64,000 nucleotides of DNA, taken from a virus (lineage: Duplodnaviria > Caudoviricetes). Both the position numbers and the translations under genes were made by a program. Below, in pieces: positions 4,930 to 28,668 of the stretch. The DNA is taken from positions 1,275-65,274 of IMG/VR virus record IMGVR_UViG_3300024520_004699. One strand, given 5' to 3'. Numbering within the stretch: position 1 is the stretch's first letter; every line of letters begins with the position of its first letter. The notes beneath the pieces were generated by a model. The model ran no database searches and had not been told where the DNA came from. It saw nothing but the letters and a program-made list of their open reading frames with translations.

Positions 4930-5197
4930 TAGGGGACGCCGGAGCCTGAACCGGAATCGACCCAAAATAGTGCGGGGAAAAATACAGGCAGCGCCAGCAG
5001 GGCCGTGAGACGTAACAGCCACGGTAGGACCAAGTCGCTCCCAAACCACTGGAAAGACCGCACGGCAGACCAGCCCCATCATAGGTAAGGAGCCCGACAG
5101 GAAATTTCTGCGAGTGCATTCCGATGGGCGGCTAATCGAGGCCATCCTTCAGAGTGTGTCAGCGCGCACTCTTAAATGAGAGAGAAGGAGAGAGACG

Positions 5198-5395
5198 ATG
5201 ACCCTGATTACATTTACACCGGCTTGCCGGGACAGCGCAGCGAAGATCATTGAGTGTCGCTGCGAGAATGGTGTTGCTGCATATCTGGTGAATGAAGTTG
5301 AGCTGCATCGGATTTACACCACCGATGAGAAGCGGATCAAGGCGCACTGGAACGGCTTCGTTGGATATCATCGCCAGCCATCACCCAAGCGATAG
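5198..5395 (+). CDS. small early hypothetical protein
   Basis: Hairpin plus AGAAGGAG SD upstream. Confidence 0.55.
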   Translation: MTLITFTPACRDSAAKIIECRCENGVAAYLVNEVELHRIYTTDEKRIKAHWNGFVGYHRQPSPKR

Positions 5396-6663: not shown

Positions 6664-7539
6664 ATGTCAAAAATTGCTTACATCGACAAAAACTTCAGAG
6701 ATGAAAGTCTGGGATTGATAGGCCACGCCAACACAATCATTGACGAGTATCAGGCTCAGGGTTTCGATCTGACATTGCGTCAGCTGTACTATCAGTTTGT
6801 TGCCCGGGATCTGATCCCGAACACTCAGCGGTCTTACAAGCGCCTCGGCGGCATCATCAACGATGCCCGTCTCGCCGGTCACATCGACTGGGAGGCCATC
6901 GTGGACCGCACGCGCAACCGGCACACCCATGCGACATGGGATGACCCCGCTCAGATTATCCGGGCGGCGGCCAGCAGCTATAAGGTCGATCTCTGGGAGA
7001 CCCAGATATATCGGCCTGAAGTCTGGATCGAAAAAGAAGCGTTAATCGGCGTGATCGAGGGTGTGTGCAAAGAGTTTCAGGTTCCATATTATGCATGCCG
7101 TGGCTACAACTCACAGTCGCAGCAGTGGCGAGCCGCAGTCAGGGCCGAGGCTCACGAAAAAAACGACCAGCAGCCAATCATCTTTTATTTTGGCGACCAT
7201 GACCCCAGCGGCATGGATATGCCTCGCGATCTGCGGGACAGGTTCAAGCTGTTCATAGGCGGCCATGAGCTGGAGAGGATTGCCCTCAACAAGGATCAGG
7301 TGGATGAGTATTCTCCTCCGCCAAATCCAACCAAGTTGACGGACAGTCGCTCGACTGACTACATCCAAGAACACGGTGACAGTTCATGGGAGCTGGACGC
7401 TCTCGATCCTCCGGTCATCGCCGGGCTGATCCGCAAATGTCTTGAGGGCATAACGGATCCGGGATCTTGGGATGAATCGCTCAAGCGACAGGCGGAGGGG
7501 TGTGAGCTTCTCGACTCTATCGCCAATGAGTATGGATAA
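6664..7539 (+). CDS. Toprim-domain protein (TopoVI-A/Spo11/JetD-like)
   Basis: LTLRQLYYQ winged-helix Tyr motif, WIEKEAL, FGDHDPSG (DxD), RIAL, WELDAL. Confidence 0.7.
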   Translation: MSKIAYIDKNFRDESLGLIGHANTIIDEYQAQGFDLTLRQLYYQFVARDLIPNTQRSYKRLGGIINDARLAGHIDWEAIVDRTRNRHTHATWDDPAQIIRAAASSYKVDLWETQIYRPEVWIEKEALIGVIEGVCKEFQVPYYACRGYNSQSQQWRAAVRAEAHEKNDQQPIIFYFGDHDPSGMDMPRDLRDRFKLFIGGHELERIALNKDQVDEYSPPPNPTKLTDSRSTDYIQEHGDSSWELDALDPPVIAGLIRKCLEGITDPGSWDESLKRQAEGCELLDSIANEYG

Positions 7540-7585
7540 GACGTTACTGTTCTGGCCCACCACCAACCATTGAGTTTCCTCCCAT

Positions 7586-7618
7586 GGTCGGGGCCCTTCG
7601 GGGTCTCGGCCTTTTTTT
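7586..7618 (+). terminator. intrinsic terminator
   Basis: GGTCGGGGCCC-TTCG-GGGTCTCGGCC followed by T7. Confidence 0.8.
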
Positions 7619-7619
7619 G

Positions 7620-7646
7620 TTGCGTAACTCGTCGTTACAATATAGT
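7620..7646 (+). promoter_or_regulatory. putative promoter of the tas/TIGR operon with a GTAAC-N5-GTTAC operator
   Basis: CGTAAC-TCGTC-GTTACA at 7623-7639, overlapping -10-like TACAAT and next to TATAGT, directly after the terminator. Confidence 0.55.
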
Positions 7647-7861
7647 CTTTGAACTGTGTCGCCTATCCGGTTGGATCTCCTGCCGGGTGGCAGCGCCAGA
7701 GAGGCCCGGTTCCCAGCCCCCCAGCACCCGGGCCTCTCCCCGGTGTCACTCCAGTTGGTGCACCACGGGGCCAGAGCGAGCCGTATCTCGCGTCGCTGTC
7801 TTCGCCGATGCGAGGCTCTGGCCCCACTCATAATGATGAACAAATAACAAGGATTGAGCCC

Positions 7862-8767
7862 ATGTATGAAAAATTGAAACTAACCGAGGATCTGAAAAAA
7901 GCCTCACTCGGCCTGAGCCGTGAAGAGGCGAGATTTCTCGTCGACGCCTACTACCAGCTGCAGGATGCAAGGATTCGGGCGGCTGGACAAATCCGAGCAG
8001 TTCTAGACGAAACTCCCGGCATCCTTAGCTGGGTGCAACTTTATGTCGAGAACATCGAAGACGAAATCAAGAAGGCCCTCACAATGTATGCCTCCGGACA
8101 CCCTGTCTGTGAGTGGGCCCAGACAGTGAAGGGCATTGGCCCAGTTTTGAGCGCGGGCTTGGTCGCCCACATCGATATCACCAAGTGTCCAACTGTCGGC
8201 CACATCTGGTCCTTCGCTGGGGTTAACCCCGAACAGGAATGGGGCAAGGGACAGAAGCGCCCCTACAACGCTGACCTCAAAGTGCTGCAATGGAAGATCG
8301 GCGAGAGCTTCGTCCGGTCGGGCGGCGGCGGGATTTACAACGACGTTTATAAAACGCGCAAAGAGCAGGAGATCGCACGCAATCTGAATGGAGATTTTGC
8401 CGATCAGGCGAAGGCCAAGTTGAAGAAGTTCAACATCGGCAAGAACACAGATGCGTATAAATGGTATGCAGGTCGGATCACCCGCAAAGAGGCGGAGCGC
8501 GTTCTCAAGCTGGCGGCTGCCGACAAGGTGGTGAAGCCCAAGCTGGTGAAGGAAGGGAAGGGCCAGCCCATGCTGCCCCCGGCCCATATCCATTCCCGGG
8601 CCAAGCGTTATGCCGTCAAGCTGTTTATGAGCCACTGGCATTTCGTAGCGTATTTTAACCACTACGGAAAGCGTCCGCCGAAGCCATACATCCTCGAACA
8701 TGGCCATGGTCACGTTCATGAAATATTGCCTCCGAACTTCGATGTGAAAAGCAAGAAGGCAGCATAG
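7862..8767 (+). CDS. TasA-like Nop/IS110-related RNA-binding protein (no RuvC or HNH domain)
   Basis: Helical N-terminus (YYQLQDARIRAAGQ), VKGIGPVLSAGL, HIWSFAGV..KGQKRPYNADLK and HIHSRAKRYAVKLF, as in IS110 C-terminal/Nop domains. No DEDD RuvC-like N-terminus. Abuts a 36-nt dual-repeat array. Confidence 0.8.
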   Translation: MYEKLKLTEDLKKASLGLSREEARFLVDAYYQLQDARIRAAGQIRAVLDETPGILSWVQLYVENIEDEIKKALTMYASGHPVCEWAQTVKGIGPVLSAGLVAHIDITKCPTVGHIWSFAGVNPEQEWGKGQKRPYNADLKVLQWKIGESFVRSGGGGIYNDVYKTRKEQEIARNLNGDFADQAKAKLKKFNIGKNTDAYKWYAGRITRKEAERVLKLAAADKVVKPKLVKEGKGQPMLPPAHIHSRAKRYAVKLFMSHWHFVAYFNHYGKRPPKPYILEHGHGHVHEILPPNFDVKSKKAA

Positions 8768-9707
8768 TCGAGCCAATTTGAAAGAGAGCACCAACGGACG
8801 CGAGCGAGCCACACCTACCGAGAGCACCAGAACCCGCGAGCGAGCCATTACTTGTGAGAGCACCACAAACCCGGAGCGAGCCATCCAATGCGAGAGTACC
8901 AGACGAACCGAGCGAGCCACGGCCTTTGAGGGTGCCACATTATTGGAGCGAGCCACACCACTTGAGAGCACCATGTCCTGAGAGCGAGCCATCACGTCGG
9001 AGAGCACCATTTGGGGTGAGCGAGCCAACTCCTCGGAGAGCGCCAGAGAATTTGAGCGAGCCATTGAAGCCGAAAGCACCATGCAGATAGAGCGAGTCAA
9101 GAACCGAGAAAGCGCCATTCCATGTGAGCGAGCCAAGCTTTTCGAGAGCACCAACAGTCGGGAGCGAGTCAAGTCGAACGAGAGTGCCACGCCTATTGAG
9201 CGAGCCAACACATAAGAGAGCACCATCCATTGTGAGCGAGCCACCAGTTCGGAGAGTACCAGAAAATGAGAGCGAGCCACCCGAGACGAGAGCACCACAA
9301 CCCCCGAGCGAGCCACGCGAGTCGAGAGCACCAATATCTAGGAGCGAGCCATGGCCCTTGAGAGCACCATAACAGAAGAGCGAGCCATACGATGAGAGAG
9401 TGCCAAAGCTCATGAGCAAGCCATCCAGTTGGAGAGCACCAACGTAGCTGAGCGAGCCATCGCATCAGAGAGTACCAAAAAGTGTGAGCGAGCCATCAAC
9501 TATGAGAGTACCAATTTCAGGGAGCGAGCCACACATGATGAGAGCGCCACAATGGAGGAGCGAGCCATTTGTTCTGAGAGTACCATCAAAGGTGAGCGAG
9601 CCAGACTGCCGGAGAGCACCATTCGGGACGAGCGAGCCACCAGACCAGAGAGTGCCATTCATGAGGAGCGAGCCAACATCACGGAGAGTACCAAACAATG
9701 AGAGCGA
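8766..9707 (+). ncRNA. TIGR-like dual-repeat guide RNA array, 26 x 36-nt units
   Basis: Exact 36-nt period from 8766 to 9701: GAGCGAGCCA + 8 variable nt + GAGAGYRCCA + 8 variable nt, all spacer pairs different. Confidence 0.9.
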
Positions 9708-10225
9708 ATAAAAAAAACGAGAATGCCGGGCTTGTGCGCAGCTATGTTTATGGGCGGGCTGTAGTGATTGGGATGAAGAAAGAGGACGGCATTATAAGGC
9801 AGGAGGGTCCGTGGAGATACGAGGATACTGGAGAGGAGCGCAGCTCCAAGAAGGTAGATTGGCCCTGCCCGAAGTGCGGCCTCCTGCCCACAGTGGATGG
9901 GGAGGATCCATGCATAGCAAAACTCCCGGGAGTGACGGCTGCATGCTGTGGACACGGCGTCATGAAGGGATACGTAGCGTTTGATAGTGGGATAGTTATT
10001 CGCGGTGAATTTGATCATATAAAAGAGGAAACGGGGGGAGAGCCAGCCCGACGGAGAGTACCAAACAATGAGAGCGAGCCAAAGCGACGAAGAGCACCAG
10101 ATCAGATGAGCGAGCCAGCGCACAAGAGAGTACCAAAGCCCATGAGCGAGCCAGAGGATGAGAGGGTACCAAACAAGAAGAGCGAGCCACCAACTACGAG
10201 AGCACCAAACAATGAGAGCGGCTGA
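9698..10225 (+). CDS. Cys-rich phage protein inserted in the array (C-terminus reads through the second sub-array)
   Basis: CPKCGLLPT..DPCIAKLPGVTAACCGHG motif; ATG lies inside the last spacer of sub-array 1. Confidence 0.6.
   Translation: MRANKKNENAGLVRSYVYGRAVVIGMKKEDGIIRQEGPWRYEDTGEERSSKKVDWPCPKCGLLPTVDGEDPCIAKLPGVTAACCGHGVMKGYVAFDSGIVIRGEFDHIKEETGGEPARRRVPNNESEPKRRRAPDQMSEPAHKRVPKPMSEPEDERVPNKKSEPPTTRAPNNESG
10036..10220 (+). ncRNA. second TIGR-like sub-array, 5 x 36-nt units
   Basis: Units start at 10036, 10072, 10108, 10144 and 10180, with the same repeats. Confidence 0.85.
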
Positions 10226-10424
10226 AGCAAAGACTGTTAATCTGAAGACCAATACGGCCACGCTGGTTGACGGCAAGCAGGTCAGGATTGAGAGGATGTG
10301 GGATAAGAGTGGAAAGCCAGCTCAGGATCCTCGCATGGCCGAGTCGGTGATGGTTACCGGGCGCGAACGCGGCGACTGGGCGATCATCAATCTTGAAACA
10401 TTCAAGGGAGAGGTAGTGCGATGA
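10212..10424 (+). CDS. hypothetical protein starting in the last array spacer
   Basis: ATG within AACAATGA-GAGCG, the same context as the ORF at 9698. Confidence 0.5.
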   Translation: MRAAEAKTVNLKTNTATLVDGKQVRIERMWDKSGKPAQDPRMAESVMVTGRERGDWAIINLETFKGEVVR

Positions 10425-10578
10425 ACATGGGGCAAATGTTGTCCAAGCTCAAGCGGGACAAAGAGATGTCGGATCTCAGGAAGATCATTGCTGAGTGCAA
10501 TGAGCAGCAGGCGCGGATAGACGAGTTACGGAAGCGCCTTAAGGTGAAGCGTGGAGAAAGTTTAATGGAGGCCGTGAG

Positions 10579-10788
10579 ATGAAGGTTGGACGCATGAAGA
10601 TCACCTACGAAAAAATAGGCCAAGCTCTAGGTTTGCCAGAAGGCAATGAGGTAGTCGGGGTGGATGCTCAATCTTTTGAGGGCACAGTAGAGGAGACGAT
10701 TAGCATTCTGGTTTGCGGCAGAGACATGCCTGAGCACCGCGAGGGAGAGGCCATTCAGACTGTTAAGGTGAAAAGGATTGTGGAATGA
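10579..10788 (+). CDS. hypothetical protein
   Basis: GGAGG SD; part of a run of coupled small ORFs. Confidence 0.5.
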   Translation: MKVGRMKITYEKIGQALGLPEGNEVVGVDAQSFEGTVEETISILVCGRDMPEHREGEAIQTVKVKRIVE

Positions 10789-14692: not shown

Positions 14693-14945
14693 AAAAGGGC
14701 ACGAGATAAGCCCTCAGCTTATTCTGGAAACCTACCAGAAGGTGGGCAGCGCCAGAAAGACCGCAGCAATCCTGTGCATCTCAGCAAGTTCCGTCGCCTA
14801 TCACTTGAAGCGCATGGGAGTGTGGAATCCCATGAAAAAAGACAAAAGATCAAAGAAAGAGGAAGAGGCGGAGGTCGTAGACCCTCTCCTCACGGCCCTG
14901 AAAAAAGAGCATCCAGAAAGGTGGGCGGCCATTGAAAGAAAGTAA
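14679..14945 (+). CDS. small HTH protein
   Basis: SARKTAAILCISASSVAYHL HTH pattern. Confidence 0.55.
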   Translation: MGRPRKGHEISPQLILETYQKVGSARKTAAILCISASSVAYHLKRMGVWNPMKKDKRSKKEEEAEVVDPLLTALKKEHPERWAAIERK

Positions 14946-15492
14946 TTTTAATGTCCGTGGCTTTCTCAAGTGGGTAGAGATGGTGGGCGGGCAGCCTCAA
15001 CAGCCACACACAGAATGGGAAGCCGCACGCTACATACTGGGCGGGATCATACACGTCATCCATCGCGATAAGAGGGGCAACGTGAAGATGACGCGGGGAT
15101 CGTTTGAGCACTATCGCATGTACGGCGCTGGCACTGTGATGAGAGTGGTGAGGCGCGTCACACAGAAGAAGCGAACAGCCCTTGTCAATTCTCTCTTGAT
15201 CCGTGATGGGGATCTGTGCTCTGTTTGCCTCCTCCCCCTACATGAGGACATTTCCATTGAGCATTGGCTCAGTGTGGAGGCTGGGGGGAACAATGGCGAA
15301 GCGAACGTGAGTTTGACGCATGCTGTATGCAACCAGATACTCGGCGACCGGCCAGTTGGTCACAAGGTCAGCATCTGCTCGATCATTCGCGAGGTCTGTC
15401 CTGACGAGCCTCCCGACAGGCATCACCATGTCTGGTATGACATCAGGCAACAATTCCCACTGAAAAATGGCAATGGAGGAGAGGTGACATGA
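14932..15492 (+). CDS. HNH endonuclease-domain protein
   Basis: RDGDLCSVC..SIEHW..GGNN..NVSLTHAVCN. Confidence 0.75.
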   Translation: MKESNFNVRGFLKWVEMVGGQPQQPHTEWEAARYILGGIIHVIHRDKRGNVKMTRGSFEHYRMYGAGTVMRVVRRVTQKKRTALVNSLLIRDGDLCSVCLLPLHEDISIEHWLSVEAGGNNGEANVSLTHAVCNQILGDRPVGHKVSICSIIREVCPDEPPDRHHHVWYDIRQQFPLKNGNGGEVT

Positions 15493-21297: not shown

Positions 21298-24200
21298 ATG
21301 GCTGGTCCAAGTATATTTGACAGCCCTCTCGGTCAGTCTTTCACCAAGGTCACGGATTTTTTCAGCGGCAAGGAGAAGAAGCCTGCCGACGTCTCCTATA
21401 TTCCGACAGATCGCACCCCTAAATTTGCTGAGGAAGAGCAACTCACTCACACGATAGATGACCTCGACCGGCATTGGGTTGGGGAGAACGGACCATTCCC
21501 CAACAGAGAAGCTGCAGCCGCTTGGGATCAGGAGAGGCGAGAAGCAGCCCGCGCTCACATGCCTTCTCCGGCAGCGACAACTGAAGAGCAGGCGGAGCGT
21601 GACAAGTGGTCAACATATGATACTGGAACGCCCCACGCCGAGCCTCCCAACGTCATAGGCAGAACGTCTTATGGCAGGGCCATAGTCAAAAACGAAGATG
21701 GGTCTCTCTCCACCAAGAGAACGAGCACATTCCAGTTTCCAGATGGCAAATGGTACAACGCGCCGACCATGGACGAAGGAGGCAACCCGCTGACCGATGA
21801 GCAGGCCTACCACAGCGTCACGTCCTACCGTGAAGAAGAGGGATCTGGAAGCGTCGAGATATTCGGGAGCGATCTGTACCGTGATCCGGTTACCGATCAG
21901 ACGCTAAGTGGTTATGGCACGCGAGAAGAGGCAGAAGCTGCCGCTCAAGAGGAGAGCGACAGGGCAATGGAGAATGTTCCATATCACCTCCGGCCTCCCC
22001 AGTTGGTGGAAGTGGAGCATGACCCATTCAGTGCTGAGAATGATCCGCTGGGAGAGAGGGCCGAAGCCGAGGCCGAGCCTCTGGGCCGAAACAATATCCG
22101 CGTGACTCCGGGCAAGGCCCTGCGCCGCATCAACCAGCATCTCATGGATATGATGGAGAGAGGGGTGACGGCACCGGGAGAGGCATACAGCGGTGAGCTT
22201 CAGGTTATTGGTCCGGACGGTCATGTGACCGATGAAGCCATTGCCCGCTCTATAGAGATGACCCTCGCATCCATAGGCGGCGGCGCAGCTGCAAACGCAA
22301 TCATAAAAGCAGCTGGTCGAGACATCGCCAGAGGAAGACTGTCCTTCGCCGGTCGGGGAATTAGAGACCAGATCAAAGTCAAAAGGAGAATGCGTCAACA
22401 TGAGGGTCTGCTGGCGGCAGACGAACCTAGCGCTGGCAGGGCTTTAATACCGCTTGCGGAGCAGGCCGGAGAGCGTATAGTCCAGCCTCGGACGGGAGCC
22501 ATAGGAGGCGTTGATGAAGGTACTCAAGTTCTCGGACTTCAAGAATCGGAGGGAGTGGCTGGAGGCAGTGGGGGAACTGGGCTTCAGCGACCGGCAGGGT
22601 ATGGAAGAGAGCATCCGGCAGGCAGTCTCGAACAAGGAGATACAGGAGCCGCTGTACGCCCACCTGCCGAAGTGGGCGCTCGCAGCCCTGACCTAGAGCC
22701 GACAGCAGCGCAGAAGGCCTACGACGACAGCGCTGGCTTCTTCTCCGGCATCACCACAGGCGAACTCCAGTCCCAGATCCCACAGATCTCAGGCTATGAG
22801 CCCGTGATCCCCCTGCGACCGCAGGAGAAAGCGTTCGAGGGTGCGCGCGGTGAGTTCAAGCATTACTTCGAGGATCACATCGCGGCGTCCATTCCCGGCC
22901 ATCCTGAAGTGCAGGCTTCGGTTGGCTCCGCCATCGTCAGGGCATATGGGAAGACTGGTGCTGATGTGCTCGACATTGGGGCGAGCGAGGGGGCACTCAA
23001 CAAGGCAATCACCAAAGCCAGCGGCGGCAAGATCCGCACGGTCGCGCTGGATCCAAATCTTGACTTTAAAGTCACGTTTGAGAGCAAGCCGCAGGCCGAA
23101 GGAGCCACGTTCGTCGCCGAAGCCTTTGGCACGCCAGAGCAGGCAGGAAAGTTTGCCTTCAATCACGAAACGACGCCGATCAACTACTTCGACCCGAAGG
23201 GCCAGAAGTTCGACGTTGTCCACGAGTCGATGACCTTCCAGTTCATAGACGCTGAACGCCTCAGCAAGTTCGAGGCCGCCAAGGATCTGCTGAAGGATGA
23301 TGGCGTCGCCCTGTTCGAGCAGAAGGTCAAGGCCGATGGCACTGACGCATGGGCCACGAATGAAGAGGCCAAGAACCAGTTCAAGCGTCGACTGTTCACC
23401 GAGCAGCAGCTTTCAGACAAGCAGGAGATAGCTCTCGTCGGCATGAACGAGAAGATGGTGCCGAAGCTGGAGCTGGAGCAGGCGCTGAAGGACACGTTCA
23501 AGCACGTCCGTCAATACTGGGATAGCGGCAACTTCAAGGGCTACATCGCTTCTGAATCCGAGGCGGCCATCAAGAATTTCCTGAACGGAATGCAGGACAC
23601 GTCATCGAGCTTCTCGAATGTCGGCTATGGCTTCAAGCTGTCAGCCAATCCGAAGGAGGCCGCGCCTCTTCTTGCTGCCCTGACGCGAGACGTTGATGCA
23701 ATGGGCTTTGTGTCCCCCACTCTGGAGGCGGCGAAGAGGCTTCCGGCGAAGGGCACAGCCCAGCAGATGCTGAAGCAGCTGGAGAACAAGCTGGGCGGCA
23801 AGCCGAAGGAGATCGAGGCGACCGGGCTGCCAATATGGATTGAGAGACGCTCAAGGGGGCTGTTGAGAAAAAGTGACTACGATCAAAGGTATAAGCTGAA
23901 TGTATCAGAACTCATCGCCGCCACTAGGAAGCTAGACCCCGCGTCGGATCTGTTTAAGCGTGTGCTTGAGGCCAACAAAAAATATCAGGACTTCATAACT
24001 TCCAGTTTGTTGGTAGATATGGAGCAGTTGGATTCCTCGATCATTGACACGTTCGCAGATCTTCTCGGTCGAGACATCTTCCAAACTCCTCAAGTTAAGA
24101 AGGGCATGGTCACGCGAGATGAGGTTGTCCAGTATCTGAGAGACAATCGCGTCGCCGTATCCGAGGTGGCGCTTGGAAAATTCGAGGACGTAGGAGATCT

Positions 24201-27200
24201 TGACGAGATAATTATAGATGCTCGATTCCACGCTATCCAAGAATCTGAGCAAAAATTTTTTGTTGATGAAGCGCAGGACGTAGAGGGCAATGAGACCGGA
24301 GAATGGGTTCTTTCGAGTGAGTCGTCTGGAGAAGAAATAGGTCGATATAGCAGTGAAGATGATGCCTATGCAGCCTTAACCGAAGCTGCCGAAGAACTAG
24401 CTGAGGGCTACGACCATCTTCCCGGCAAGCCAGAAACTGTGTTCTCCGGATACCAGCAACCTCACGCCGGAGGCGAGTACACCGAGCGCCTGTTCCACAT
24501 GCCCGGACACCCCGGCAAGTTCGAGGGTCACCACTGGCAAGATGAGGGAGTCCCGCTGCCCATCTTCGCCCACCAGAGGGTGTCCTATTATCAGAGGCCT
24601 ACGCTAGAATCCCCGGAAGCGACTGCAAGCAGGGAGGCTATGGTATCTGCTATGCAGGCAGACAGGAGAAAATTGCATGATGACATCATAAATTTTAGAC
24701 AAGAAACCGTTGCTAATTCTTCCCAGAACGACCCCATAATTCAGGCAAAGCATCGCAGCATGGAAGAGGCTCACGGTCAGCTTGGCTATAAGATTAGGGA
24801 CACTCAGAATGAATTTTTTGAAGACATCTACTTCGTCGGCGAGTACCAGAGCGATCTGGCTGATGCCATTCGTGAGGGGGGAGGTCTGACCGATGCGACG
24901 GCCAGAAGGAACGCGCAGGAAGAGCTGGTGGTGTACGAAAAAGAACTCGCCGCAATGAGGGTTGAGGCAAACCAAATATTGAAGAGCGTCATTGAGAAGG
25001 GCGATATGCCCATGCCAGATGCCGCCAATGATGATCTTGGCCAATATTTTAGGGAACACGAATCAATTGCTCTCTCATCCATGGCAAATGTGGCTAACCA
25101 AGTACGCAACATACCCACCAGAGGAAGAGCGAGGGAGCTGGCTGAGAGGGACTCCCTAGTGACACTGAGGATGCAAGAAATAGAAAACAAACTCAGGAGA
25201 TCAGAGAATCTCTCCCATCCCTTCGCCAACACCACGACCGACTACGTCGACTTCCTCATCAGGGCAACTCTGACTGATGCAGCGCGTCTCGGCATGGACA
25301 GGATCGTCTGGACGACGCCGGAGGACATCACTCTGGCCTCCCATGGTCAGCTGGAAGGCAATCGCGAGTTCTACGGCAAGATCGTTAGGAACCGCATCCA
25401 GAAACAGCTTAAGAGGCTGGGCCCGCTCGCCGTGCTGGAGAGGACAGCCGCTCCGCACGACGCGCCTGTTTTTCGCGATACTGCATACACAGAAGCGGAG
25501 GTGGATCAGGCTTATGAGGATTCCGCAAGGCTTAGAGAGCTTATCCTTCATACCGATAGAAGAATACAGACGCTTGTGAGCCGGGCACATGCAGAGGGGT
25601 ATTCCCCTCCAGCTCCCGGGATAGAAAGCTATGCTTATCTGGAGATGTCCAAACGCATGGCAAAACCAGATGCGATTGGCGTTTCGGAATCACTCAAAAG
25701 CGAAATAACAAAGGAGCATGCCACGCGGGATGATTTTAATCAGGCATATATGAAAGCCCAAGAAATTCTTGATGTATCCCTTGAAGACAAGAAGGGAAAA
25801 TTAGTCCGCGCTGACCCAGAAGTTGGTGAGGTGGAAGTCAAAAAAGATCCCACGGGACACGGCTTCAGGCTTCACAGCAAGAAGACAGGCAGTGTGATGC
25901 CCGGGCGCTTTGGCACATCAACTGAAGCCTTCGAGGAAGCGGATAGGATGAGTCTTCCCTTCAAGAGAAAGGATTATATGTCCATCAAGCTCTCTCCGGA
26001 GCTGCGCAAGCAGATCATGGAGAATGGCATCGACCTGTTTGCCAACAACCCGAGGGCTGCGGCGATGATCATCACCGCGCTAAGGGACGCAGAACAGGCA
26101 GCCCAGAGCGTTGGCTTCCGTCGCTCGGTTGCAGGAGGCATGCGGTCTCCCATCATCGGCACCGGCAGAAAGGGCAAGACCCTCATCAAGGACATCGCCA
26201 AACACTTTGACGCACAGCACATGGAGAAGTATGGGCGCAAGCTGGATCCTATCGGCAACCCTCAGGACATGGACACGATCATCGCCGGAGCTGCGTCGGA
26301 GATCCAGCACCAGCAGTCCCAGCCTGTGACTGGCGAGGGGTGGTATGGCGAGGATGTCGAGGAATCTTTCCGGCAGAGCACTCCGATTGTGCCGAGGCTG
26401 GCCGAGAGCGAACCGTTGCGTGTCCTGTCAACATTCATGACTGCCATCACATCAGGCATCAAAAACCCGGTGGAGAATTGGGAAGCTGGCATGGACATGC
26501 TGGAGGCCTACGAAGAGACCGGAGTGGTGCCGACGAAGAAGGCGAGCGGGAAGAACTGGGGATACAACATCGCGCCTCAGGTGAACATTCTCAATCATCT
26601 GATTGGTACGATGGGAGAGGAGGGGGCGGCCAGATGGTTGCTGTCCCTGCACCCGGTCAAGGAACTCAACGAGGTCCGAATAGCATCAGGCTATAAAAAG
26701 GGATCGAAGGTCGTTGGAAAGATGGATGACCAACTCCTTGGAGGAGAGGCCTTCGGTGCCAAGTATGGTCCGTTTGGGCTCGGCATGAATGGGTTCGAGA
26801 ATACCGTGAGCGACAGGTGGCACACGAGATCCTACAACCGTCATATTGGACGGCTTTCGGATGTTCCAAAGGGATACAAATCTCCAGCTACAGATATGCC
26901 GCGCAACTCCACCGAACGTGCCGCAATGAAAGCTTGGAACATGGGGGCGGCTGACGAGGCGGGTATCAGCGAGCTGGATGGTCAGGCGGTCCTGTGGTAC
27001 TATGAGCAACAGCTTTACACCGATGCAGGAGTTCCCAGTGAGCCACAAAAGTTCTCAGAAGGCGCAGCGAAAGCCCTCCAAAAAAGAGGGTTTGCAGCGC
27101 AACCGCGAGATGTTCGCCCGAGCGATGAAGGTCAAGCTGGACAACAACGCCAAGGCGCTGGCAGCACGCTCTTCTCAAACCCAGACGAAGCAGCCGGTCT

Positions 27201-28668
27201 AGCCCTCCTCAATCAGCGAGATCCCCTCGGCTTCTATTCCCGGGCCTCGCGCTCTGCCGCCCAGATCAAGCAGAAGAAGGGCCCTCCCGGGGCCATGATC
27301 AACCGTCTCAAGGAAGGCGGAGTGACCGACGAGGAGATCCGGTGGACCGGCCTCGACAAGTGGATGAAGAGCCGCAAGAGCGTCACCAAGGAAGAGGTGC
27401 AGAGCTATCTCCTCGACAACCGCATCCCCATCGAGAAACACCTGAAGGTAGGCGGGGGTGCGAAGTGGAAGGACCATTATGTCGAGGGCGGTCCCATAAC
27501 CACTCCCGGTGGATCCAACTATCGAGAGATCCTGTTCTCCTACGCTCCAAAGAAGCCCGGCAAGCCGATGTTCCTCTCGTCTCACTTCCAAGAGCCAAAC
27601 TTGATTGGTCACGTTCGCTTGCAGGACTATCCGGTGACCGGGGGAAGCATAAAGCCAGTCGATGAGGCGGCCTATCTAAAGGATCTTGCGGATTGGCGCA
27701 GGCAGCACGATGCGTGGAAAGCCAAATATGCAAAAGCGCAGATGAGCAACTTCAACTTCGATCCATCACCGGAAATGAGAGCCTTGTCGGCGCAAGAGCC
27801 TGTGAGGCCTTCTAAATCAAGGACCGCCCTGCTGTCAGAAGAAGAGCAGTCGGACTGGGCCCAGTATGGTCGCGCACACGGGTTCTCGCCCGGTGCCCGG
27901 GAGGCCAAGGAGGCTCTGAGAACTAAAGTGGATGACATCACTGCGGACATCATGAAGCTGAACATGAAGGAAGGTAATCTCAAAAGCAGGATGATGGACT
28001 TGGGATTTTCGTCAGGCGCATCCGGCACTGTAACCAAGCTCTTTGCAACCGGCAACACCGCCACCAAAAAGCAACTGGTCGACAAGGCAAAACTCGACGA
28101 GGAGATGAAAGACACAAAAGACAGGATGAGAGATCTGATCAAGGGCCGTTCCAATCTTCTCAGATCTCGGGTTCCAGCCGAGGAGGGCCCGTTGATCACG
28201 GAGACATCCAAGTGGACCGAGTTCCTCGCCAAGAACATCATCATGGAGGCGGTGGATGGAGGCTACAAATACATCGCTCTGAAGACCGGCGCATCTCAGG
28301 CTCGACGCTATCGCCTCGAGGAAGATGAAGCGGCGGGAATGATCACTTACTATGATGGCATCAGAATTGATGTGTGGCGTAAGCTTCTCAAGGAAATTGA
28401 CCCAGAGATCAAGATTGAAACAGCAAATCTCCAGCAGGAGTCCAGAGACGGAAGTGAGGGGGAGGCCATCTATCTAATTCGCGTCACCGAGGCAATGGAA
28501 GATGCCGCTGGGGAAGGTTTCTCACTTATGGCGGGGGGTGTGCCCTTTACGGACGACAGAAAATCTGAATTAACGCAGGTAGAGCACGATCCATTTGCTC
28601 CTTCGGAAGGAAGCCATGGCCCAGACGCACGACCCGCACAACGTACCGAAGCAAGAGCGGCAAGATGA
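21298..28668 (+). CDS. giant polyvalent virion-associated protein (SAM-methyltransferase fold, duplicated large-polyvalent-like domain, HhH/glycosylase-like domain)
   Basis: 2456 aa; VLDIGASEG..FDVVHESMTFQF; two homologous blocks (TGL..VT(R/K)(D/E)EV..YL.DN..Y.E.LF..H..E.QSD); WY..AITS..DRWHTR..QAVLW. Confidence 0.75.
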   Translation: MAGPSIFDSPLGQSFTKVTDFFSGKEKKPADVSYIPTDRTPKFAEEEQLTHTIDDLDRHWVGENGPFPNREAAAAWDQERREAARAHMPSPAATTEEQAERDKWSTYDTGTPHAEPPNVIGRTSYGRAIVKNEDGSLSTKRTSTFQFPDGKWYNAPTMDEGGNPLTDEQAYHSVTSYREEEGSGSVEIFGSDLYRDPVTDQTLSGYGTREEAEAAAQEESDRAMENVPYHLRPPQLVEVEHDPFSAENDPLGERAEAEAEPLGRNNIRVTPGKALRRINQHLMDMMERGVTAPGEAYSGELQVIGPDGHVTDEAIARSIEMTLASIGGGAAANAIIKAAGRDIARGRLSFAGRGIRDQIKVKRRMRQHEGLLAADEPSAGRALIPLAEQAGERIVQPRTGAIGGVDEGTQVLGLQESEGVAGGSGGTGLQRPAGYGREHPAGSLEQGDTGAAVRPPAEVGARSPDLEPTAAQKAYDDSAGFFSGITTGELQSQIPQISGYEPVIPLRPQEKAFEGARGEFKHYFEDHIAASIPGHPEVQASVGSAIVRAYGKTGADVLDIGASEGALNKAITKASGGKIRTVALDPNLDFKVTFESKPQAEGATFVAEAFGTPEQAGKFAFNHETTPINYFDPKGQKFDVVHESMTFQFIDAERLSKFEAAKDLLKDDGVALFEQKVKADGTDAWATNEEAKNQFKRRLFTEQQLSDKQEIALVGMNEKMVPKLELEQALKDTFKHVRQYWDSGNFKGYIASESEAAIKNFLNGMQDTSSSFSNVGYGFKLSANPKEAAPLLAALTRDVDAMGFVSPTLEAAKRLPAKGTAQQMLKQLENKLGGKPKEIEATGLPIWIERRSRGLLRKSDYDQRYKLNVSELIAATRKLDPASDLFKRVLEANKKYQDFITSSLLVDMEQLDSSIIDTFADLLGRDIFQTPQVKKGMVTRDEVVQYLRDNRVAVSEVALGKFEDVGDLDEIIIDARFHAIQESEQKFFVDEAQDVEGNETGEWVLSSESSGEEIGRYSSEDDAYAALTEAAEELAEGYDHLPGKPETVFSGYQQPHAGGEYTERLFHMPGHPGKFEGHHWQDEGVPLPIFAHQRVSYYQRPTLESPEATASREAMVSAMQADRRKLHDDIINFRQETVANSSQNDPIIQAKHRSMEEAHGQLGYKIRDTQNEFFEDIYFVGEYQSDLADAIREGGGLTDATARRNAQEELVVYEKELAAMRVEANQILKSVIEKGDMPMPDAANDDLGQYFREHESIALSSMANVANQVRNIPTRGRARELAERDSLVTLRMQEIENKLRRSENLSHPFANTTTDYVDFLIRATLTDAARLGMDRIVWTTPEDITLASHGQLEGNREFYGKIVRNRIQKQLKRLGPLAVLERTAAPHDAPVFRDTAYTEAEVDQAYEDSARLRELILHTDRRIQTLVSRAHAEGYSPPAPGIESYAYLEMSKRMAKPDAIGVSESLKSEITKEHATRDDFNQAYMKAQEILDVSLEDKKGKLVRADPEVGEVEVKKDPTGHGFRLHSKKTGSVMPGRFGTSTEAFEEADRMSLPFKRKDYMSIKLSPELRKQIMENGIDLFANNPRAAAMIITALRDAEQAAQSVGFRRSVAGGMRSPIIGTGRKGKTLIKDIAKHFDAQHMEKYGRKLDPIGNPQDMDTIIAGAASEIQHQQSQPVTGEGWYGEDVEESFRQSTPIVPRLAESEPLRVLSTFMTAITSGIKNPVENWEAGMDMLEAYEETGVVPTKKASGKNWGYNIAPQVNILNHLIGTMGEEGAARWLLSLHPVKELNEVRIASGYKKGSKVVGKMDDQLLGGEAFGAKYGPFGLGMNGFENTVSDRWHTRSYNRHIGRLSDVPKGYKSPATDMPRNSTERAAMKAWNMGAADEAGISELDGQAVLWYYEQQLYTDAGVPSEPQKFSEGAAKALQKRGFAAQPRDVRPSDEGQAGQQRQGAGSTLFSNPDEAAGLALLNQRDPLGFYSRASRSAAQIKQKKGPPGAMINRLKEGGVTDEEIRWTGLDKWMKSRKSVTKEEVQSYLLDNRIPIEKHLKVGGGAKWKDHYVEGGPITTPGGSNYREILFSYAPKKPGKPMFLSSHFQEPNLIGHVRLQDYPVTGGSIKPVDEAAYLKDLADWRRQHDAWKAKYAKAQMSNFNFDPSPEMRALSAQEPVRPSKSRTALLSEEEQSDWAQYGRAHGFSPGAREAKEALRTKVDDITADIMKLNMKEGNLKSRMMDLGFSSGASGTVTKLFATGNTATKKQLVDKAKLDEEMKDTKDRMRDLIKGRSNLLRSRVPAEEGPLITETSKWTEFLAKNIIMEAVDGGYKYIALKTGASQARRYRLEEDEAAGMITYYDGIRIDVWRKLLKEIDPEIKIETANLQQESRDGSEGEAIYLIRVTEAMEDAAGEGFSLMAGGVPFTDDRKSELTQVEHDPFAPSEGSHGPDARPAQRTEARAAR

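Follow-up and report, generated by a model that had tools for sequence, protein, structure and literature searches.

A dual-repeat TIGR-TasA locus in the genome of an uncultivated marine tailed phage

We describe a TIGR-TasA locus in a 64,000-nucleotide (nt) stretch of phage DNA (Duplodnaviria; Caudoviricetes), positions 1,275 to 65,274 of the IMG/VR virus record IMGVR_UViG_3300024520_004699, which we refer to as the window. The locus lies on the plus strand. It consists of the gene tasA (7862-8767), encoding a nuclease-free Tas protein of 301 amino acids (aa) that has both a coiled coil and an RNA-binding domain of the Nop type, and of a TIGR array in two parts, subarray 1 at 8766-9707 and subarray 2 at 10036-10220. 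An original prediction, made by a model from the letters and their open reading frames (ORFs), had proposed a phage-borne system of this kind here, and the present analysis follows it up.

Results

A nuclease-free member of the Tas family

The 301-aa protein scores 192.9 bits against the NCBIfam equivalog model NF052498, 'TIGR-Tas system RNA-guided endonuclease' (TIGR_Tas_endo), whose cut-off is 100 (E 6.8e-57, residues 23-262). Its best sequence match among solved structures is TasR (9mty_A, 2.9e-18, query residues 31-169 and 240-294), and TasH is matched as well (21kl_A, 8.8e-9, along with other TasH structures). An AlphaFold2 model built on an alignment of 44 homologues has a mean predicted local distance difference test score of 90.4. 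When this model was compared with the PDB by Foldseek, ranks 1-10 were all TasH or TasR chains at probability 1.00, and ranks 12-17 were the IS110-family recombinases IS621 and ISCro4. The TIGR-Tas identity first proposed from the letters is thus borne out by family model, sequence and fold.

No nuclease domain was found in the protein by Pfam. TasR is aligned from its residue 122 onwards and TasH from its residue 127, which leaves the N-terminal RuvC and HNH parts of those enzymes with no counterpart here, and the model is instead helical over residues 9-78, ahead of the Nop part. Lacking RuvC and HNH, the protein is of the TasA type, as had been suspected; it is a nuclease-free member of the Tas family with TasA architecture.

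The original prediction had also named IS110 and Nop56/58 as possible relatives beside Tas. The Tas relationship stood and that to IS110 proved remote: Pfam gives a weak match to PF02371 (Transposase_20, IS110 C-terminal) at residues 86-126, PHROGs assigns phrog_4285, labelled 'transposase' (3.6e-43), and the NCBIfam IS110 model NF033542 is not passed, at 29.9 bits against a cut-off of 140 and over residues 62-126 alone. A match to Nop5 or Nop56/58 was not recovered, as PF01798 (Nop domain) has no match at E <= 1 and no Nop5 structure is among the Foldseek matches listed. A remote relationship between Tas and the Nop proteins of box C/D particles is described in the literature (PMC12045711).

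Two residues are kept in the C-terminal loop of the Nop domain. His284 is invariant in 44/44 aligned homologues and aligns to His296 of SpTasH, and position 276, tyrosine in 38 of the 44 and phenylalanine in six, lies one residue off SpTasH Tyr289. Y276 and H284 are therefore the predicted guide-processing pair. The SpTasH pair Y289/H296 is reported to cut the precursor of the guide RNAs, pre-tigRNA (PMC13421893), and a Tyr/His pair is described as a conserved feature of dual-repeat systems that stem-loop ones lack (10.64898/2026.09.09.750476).

An array of 31 units in two parts

Subarray 1 holds 26 units of 36 nt (8766-9701) and ends in the 3'-truncated terminal edge repeat GAGCGA at 9702; subarray 2 holds five such units (10036-10215) and ends in the similarly truncated GAGCG at 10216. 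Each unit is made of a 10-nt edge repeat, GAGCGAGCCA, an 8-nt spacer, a 10-nt loop repeat, GAGAGYRCCA, and a second 8-nt spacer. Unit starts are spaced exactly 36 nt apart from 8766 to 9666 and again from 10036 to 10180, and the two subarrays are out of register with each other, their starts being 1270 nt apart (35 x 36 + 10). The edge repeat is exact in 26 of the 31 units, as is the loop repeat, the other five loop repeats being one base off. The first edge repeat of each subarray is degenerate and 5'-truncated (AGTCGAGCCA and GGGAGAGCCA), and both last edge repeats give way to unrelated sequence. The stop codon of tasA, TAG at 8765-8767, falls inside the truncated first edge repeat of subarray 1, in agreement with the claim that the array begins at that codon. 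Repeats end in CCA (box C) before 60/62 spacers and in TCA before 2/62, and a G directly follows 61/62, much as originally described.

A 28-nt pattern of edge repeat, eight free positions and loop repeat, with at most one mismatch, fits 28/31 units, all of these matches lying in the arrays and on the plus strand; it has no further match in the 64 kb and none in 100 dinucleotide-preserving shuffles. Three units escape it: one carries two changes, and the other two are the degenerate opening units of the subarrays. Tandem Repeats Finder reports periods of 36 and 72 across the array span, and the predicted architecture of alternating 10-nt repeats in an exact 36-nt register, 26 units and then five, was confirmed. 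Sixty of the 62 spacers are distinct, with AACAATGA present three times, and the 31 guides carry 31 different spacer pairs.

The repeats can be set against published rules. TIGR repeats are described as ending in CCA (box C), those of TasR arrays as beginning with UG (box D), and the boxes as covarying between edge and loop repeats (PMC12045711). Edge and loop repeats here both begin with GAG in place of the UG whose G pairs with box C in TasR, and this common start fits the covariation rule. TIGRFinder frames a unit as a 3-nt box C, the spacer, a 2-nt box D and a 4-nt gap (10.64898/2026.09.09.750476). Framed in this way, the gap of the edge repeat, CGAG, has complementary end bases and that of the loop repeat, AGYR, does not, which agrees with the TIGRFinder rule for telling edge from loop. 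Under the same framing a unit can be read equally with 8-nt spacers or with 9-nt spacers whose final G is constant. The suggestion that 8-nt spacers might mark a variant was not upheld, since SpTIGR has already been described with 16 variable bases per guide (PMC12045711); eight against nine nucleotides makes no new variant.

Two further observations concern the array. Spacer B ends in TGA in 5/31 units of the window and in 12/143 units of related arrays (L002-L046), compared with 1/64 for unbiased bases, and spacer A does so in 2/31 and 5/143, respectively. This excess in spacer B, noticed post hoc, may reflect a preference on the side of the edge repeat; alternatively, arrays whose units are 37 nt long may have been framed with slips. 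On the minus strand, a 443-aa open frame at 8003-9334 spans tasA together with 16 units of the array. Since the repeats are stop-free in that frame and the homology of tasA is strong, this frame is most likely spurious.

Relatives share the edge repeat

A large protein collection contains 4,917 homologues at E <= 1e-5 among 6,704 candidates, the closest at 56% identity; a relative in a Microcystis phage is at 26.5%. By definition, all 32 invariant columns of the 44-sequence alignment are kept in the protein of the window. Arrays are present in all four viral relatives with 42-49% identity (4/4) and share with the window the edge repeat and the 8-nt spacer length, but their loop repeats are different and their spacers unrelated; in one relative arrays flank tasA on both sides. 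A further 41 loci come from genomes and metagenome-assembled genomes labelled Halomonas, Acidobacteriota, Chloroflexota, Saccharibacteria, a Woesearchaeota archaeon and others. At <=1 mismatch, GAGCGAGCCA occurs in at least six copies on the tasA strand in 20 of the 45 loci, with unit lengths of 34-37, and none of the 45 has more than three copies on the opposite strand. This strand bias, together with the CCA before each spacer, fixes the direction of the guide RNAs as that of the plus strand. Loop repeats in most related arrays begin with GA.

One related locus, L003, may offer a glimpse of array growth. At 5037-5330, three-unit blocks recur 108 nt apart with few bases changed, for example ATACCGCT/CCTTTTGC and ATTCCGCT/CTTTTTGG, which suggests that arrays grow by tandem duplication followed by divergence.

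A structured leader precedes tasA

Between the terminator of the upstream gene and tasA lies a structured leader (7612-7861, plus strand). It contains two perfect hairpins with 11-bp stems, at 7699-7738 and 7767-7825. The ATG is preceded by a ribosome-binding site, AAGGA. The 250-nt leader folds with a minimum free energy of -109.7 kcal/mol (z = -6.29), and none of 200 shuffles was as stable. Perfect hairpins with 10-bp arms number eight in the whole window, two of them in the leader, and the second leader hairpin includes GAGCGAGCC, the core of the edge repeat. The sole strong plus-strand terminator, an 11-pair stem followed by a T-run, is the one at 7586-7611 at the end of the PHROG 6247 gene, 5' of tasA; tasA and the arrays lie on one strand with no terminator separating them.

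Discussion

The identity and anatomy of this locus are established here, whereas its mode of action has to be drawn from the biochemistry of the family. We consider it likely that the locus is a dual-repeat TIGR-TasA system, an accessory cassette of an uncultivated marine tailed phage that works in the following way. The gene tasA and the arrays would be transcribed together, and a TasA dimer would bind the precursor and cut it in the middle of the edge repeats via Y276 and H284. The products would be 36-nt tigRNAs made up of AGCCA, spacer A (8 nt), GAGAGYRCCA, spacer B (8 nt) and GAGCG, each pseudo-symmetric guide being held by one dimer. Such a ribonucleoprotein would recognize about 16 bp without need of a protospacer-adjacent motif (PAM), spacer A pairing with one strand of the DNA and, in the adjacent half-site, spacer B pairing with the opposite strand. 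As TasA has no nuclease, we propose that the bound complex blocks rather than cuts: TasA would stay in place on a gene of the host or of a rival mobile element and hinder its transcription or some other DNA transaction. With 31 different spacer pairs, up to 31 sites could be addressed.

Published work on other TasA proteins supports several of these steps. TasA is reported to bind 36-nt RNAs (PMC12045711), and PlTasA to bind DNA as a dimer (10.64898/2026.08.11.744272). For MbTasA, reversible, guide-dependent repression of a reporter and of a chromosomal gene is described, and its target DNA was shifted in an electrophoretic mobility shift assay (10.64898/2026.09.09.750476).

Several observations weigh against this model. 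The MbTasA that represses is a different TasA from the protein studied here, and activation by an FpTasA fusion in human cells was weak. The box D position reads (G)AG, not UG. No sigma-70-type promoter was called in 7400-10600, and no terminator-like site follows 9707 or 10220 on the plus strand, where the published description expects one. Targets were also sought and not found. Statements of the cut position by Faure et al. conflict, placing it 3' of the paired nucleotide in one case and 5' in another (PMC12045711). By our derivation, the 8-nt 3' overhang that they report arises solely when spacer A is joined to the reverse complement of spacer B under the 5' rule. As the target geometry thus rests on our own derivation, we searched both for each of the 31 guides, namely A followed by reverse-complemented B, and reverse-complemented A followed by B. 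Neither geometry gave a self-target in the 64-kb window at <=1 mismatch with a gap of 0-2 bp, and no target was found in all fetched related phage and prophage loci, 790,520 bases, where 1.1 would be expected by chance. The adjacent-site matches that the original prediction had looked to were accordingly not forthcoming in this sequence.

Other results of these searches were similarly null. No target at <=1 mismatch lies in 251,499 bases of relatives. The one two-mismatch site in the window, for unit 28 at 28133 on the minus strand, is at about chance level by estimate; as a control of the gap search, re-paired guides gave one hit in 2/20 replicates. None of the spacers comes within one mismatch of any 8-mer of the array repeats. 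Guides that spell a ribosome-binding site with a start codon number one and zero in the two geometries, compared with shuffle means of 0.78 and 0.72, and hence show no excess. Targets of 16 bases are too short to be specific in very large collections; by our estimate, chance alone would yield a given 16-mer hundreds of times in the largest one.

How a nuclease-free complex is put to use could differ from simple blocking. The TasA-guide complex may be a targeting platform that bends DNA or brings some other phage or host factor to the sites set by its guides, such as a trans-acting nuclease or a protein of recombination or packaging. Faure et al. discuss DNA bending and assistance to integrases as possible roles of TasA and note TasA loci linked to ParB (PMC12045711). 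In the window, the small ORFs and the terminase genes terS and terL come directly 3' of the locus and share its strand; a gene for an HNH endonuclease is at 14932-15492. HNH genes beside terminases are, however, common packaging accessories. No ParB or other Pfam domain appears in the 12 neighbouring ORFs, and no neighbour is conserved with tasA (0/11 against the four viral loci, and 0/7 against loci L002-L111, a weak distant terL aside). We regard the platform reading as unlikely. It is less plausible still that we are looking at a decaying or silent relic, with an array that is unexpressed or a protein that no longer binds it. The missing promoter-like sites, the arrays without a following terminator and the absence of targets in the window and the 790,520 bases would fit such a state, but other features speak against it: the ORF is intact and confidently modelled with its 32 invariant columns retained, 26/31 edge repeats are exact and the register runs without slips, and contigs of other seawater runs cover parts of the array with 0 differences. 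We judge this very improbable.

A more radical reinterpretation would make the 36-nt repeat protein-coding, at 12 codons per unit, or make the gene a remnant of an IS110-type transposase with terminal repeats. The unit length is indeed divisible by three, the antisense frame at 8003-9334 reaches 443 aa, the minus strand of subarray 1 stays open for as many as 190 codons, and Transposase_20 is weakly matched. Yet variation falls in solid 8-nt blocks between invariant 10-nt blocks and not at third codon positions. Stops occur in all three plus frames of subarray 1 (4-19) and in its three minus frames (2-10), and across phyla the repeats are conserved as nucleotides while the spacers are wholly different. 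As for a transposase, the IS110 score falls far below its cut-off and there is no DEDD or RuvC part. Both versions are hardly credible, and we return to guide-directed blocking by TasA as the preferred account.

The locus can be placed among known systems. Faure et al. define TIGR arrays by two alternating repeats of 8-12 nt with short spacers, usually in 5-15 units, beside a tas gene with a Nop domain, and describe a 5'-truncated first edge repeat, a 3'-truncated last one and usually a terminator next to it (PMC12045711). The present locus fits this description except for the missing terminator and a box D of (G)AG. The catalogue of Xu et al. reports 6,685 arrays, 4,126 of them dual-repeat arrays with 65,635 guides (10.64898/2026.09.09.750476), or a mean of 15.9 guides per dual-repeat array by our division of these figures; 31 units are large by this measure, not exceptional.

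Compared by description, not by protein sequence, dual-repeat TIGR-TasA systems such as FpTIGR-TasA of Flavonifractor plautii share a solo nuclease-free Nop-type Tas, the CCA box C, truncated end edge repeats and an occurrence on phages (PMC12045711). FpTIGR is described with nine variable bases per spacer, against eight here (PMC12045711). GAG repeat starts, 31 units, the want of a terminator and an unrelated gene that splits the array set the present locus apart from dual-repeat TIGR-TasA. MbTasA and PlTasA are likewise nuclease-free TasA proteins, but the guides of PlTasA are described as hairpin-flanked (stem-loop), whereas this locus is dual-repeat and keeps the Tyr/His pair.

SpTIGR-TasH of Salicola phage CGphi29 (PDB 9W03, 9W04, 21KL) is similarly phage-borne and dual-repeat with 16 variable bases per guide (PMC12045711). 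It provides best structural matches and shares the conserved processing pair. Sequence identity in the Foldseek alignments is 17-19%, and TasH is a DNA-cutting protein that carries an HNH nuclease at its N-terminus, whereas the protein of the window begins at the coiled coil. TaTasR (PDB 9MTY) has the same Nop core and C-terminal ILEHG-GH motif but differs in its RuvC domain of about 120 N-terminal residues, 9-nt spacers and repeats starting with UG (PMC12045711). The RNA-binding domain is also a remote relative, in structure and sequence, of the bridge-RNA recombinases IS621 and ISCro4. Unlike the IS110 family, the present protein has no RuvC/DEDD catalytic domain or Tnp domain, and it is paired with many short guides in place of one bridge RNA.

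Faure et al. draw an analogy to CRISPR of types IV and V-M, whose systems likewise bind under RNA guidance without cleavage and reside on mobile elements, with a proposed role in competition between these elements (PMC12045711). The proteins are nonetheless unrelated, and CRISPR uses one long spacer against a single strand and needs a PAM. CRISPR also has dedicated adaptation genes, of which none are known for TIGR.

TIGR-Tas was published in 2025, a preprint of 2026 describes repression by TasA, and the system is already named by a family model of NCBI; the locus leaves the known picture of the family unchanged. What it adds is a marine phage locus to a subclade whose edge repeat, GAGCGAGCCA, spans hosts from many phyla. 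The question for the field is what the natural targets of TasA guides are, and none of the 31 guides matched the sequence searched. The layout, in which some bases belong to a gene and a guide at once and the array encloses an unrelated gene, may bear on how arrays grow and on how guide maturation relates to translation.

Genes within and beside the array

The gene between the subarrays is a passenger. Its ORF (9698-10225, plus strand) takes its ATG from the final spacer B of subarray 1, encodes a Cys-rich part (residues 1-112, window 9698-10033) and then continues for about 60 codons through subarray 2. Residues 1-112 belong to a small Cys-rich phage family whose five other members are 89-107 aa long. 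Its invariant residues are C57, C60, C72, C83, C84 and H86, in the motif C-x2-C ... DPCIA ... AACCGHG, and it has no match in Pfam, PHROG or NCBIfam. We considered this gene as a partner of Tas. Relatives are encoded at 53 viral loci and one genomic locus, and tasA or a periodic array lies within 4 kb of 0/54, which rules out a partnership and makes the gene a passenger. Its frame is open across all five units of subarray 2, and in the same frame subarray 1 has four stops in 26 units; at that rate five open units have a probability of about 0.43, so the read-through is compatible with chance.

How the passenger came to lie there may be recorded in the terminal unit of subarray 1. A 23-nt module at 9684-9706 on the plus strand, consisting of the loop repeat GAGAGTACCA, the spacer B AACAATGA and GAGCG, recurs identically at 10054-10076, where it belongs to the opening unit of subarray 2, and once more, one base changed, at 10198-10220, at the end of subarray 2 (loop GAGAGCACCA). 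Apart from this module the window array has no near-duplicate units. The identical copies flank the passenger gene like a direct repeat, which suggests that the gene was taken in by recombination at the module unit.

The ATG within AACAATGA of the two terminal copies starts ORFs at 9698 and 10212. The second of these (10212-10424, plus strand) has 70 aa from ATG 10212, or 88 aa from ATG 10158 inside subarray 2; no relatives of it were found, and it leads into the packaging module. The terminal units, with loop GAGAG(T/C)ACCA, AACAATGA and GAGCG, thus combine GAGAG, which resembles a Shine-Dalgarno sequence, with the ATG from which the next ORF starts. It is tempting to speculate that the guide array doubles as a cis-acting switch for neighbouring phage genes, although we regard this as rather doubtful. 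By binding a terminal unit, TasA would cover the start codon in it; by cutting the unit, it would sever that codon. Build-up of TasA would then end translation of the downstream genes, tying guide maturation to the timing of phage genes.

Genomic context

The source record is a virus contig of 65,274 nt with a completeness rating of 81%. The window holds terS and terL, portal, head protein, endolysin, RecT and exonuclease genes and parts of a polymerase, which upholds the assignment to a phage, and one tRNA-Thr gene is present. The DNA runs that contain the locus are seawater metagenomes, and there is no RNA dataset among the six. Array stretches in contigs of four other seawater runs (X3-X6) show 0 differences from the window, and being identical they give no view of array turnover.

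The locus is bordered 5' by the PHROG 6247 gene and 3' by the small ORFs that precede terS and terL. None of 11 flanking proteins was matched at the four related viral loci and none of seven at loci L002-L111, save for weak terL hits in distant phages; tasA was not found in the fetched phage regions related by the portal gene. Since no flanking protein recurs beside tasA in relatives and the portal-related regions are without it, the locus looks like a mobile accessory cassette. Searches of wider scope gave no match by megablast against a phage collection, in the PADLOC defence catalogue or, for 7400-10600 at E <= 1, in Rfam, and a genome contig collection yielded no relative of the portal gene in a prophage. 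Directly 3' of the portal gene lies an ORF of 2,456 aa (21298-28668), of which residues 519-753 are methyltransferase-like (phrog_4752).

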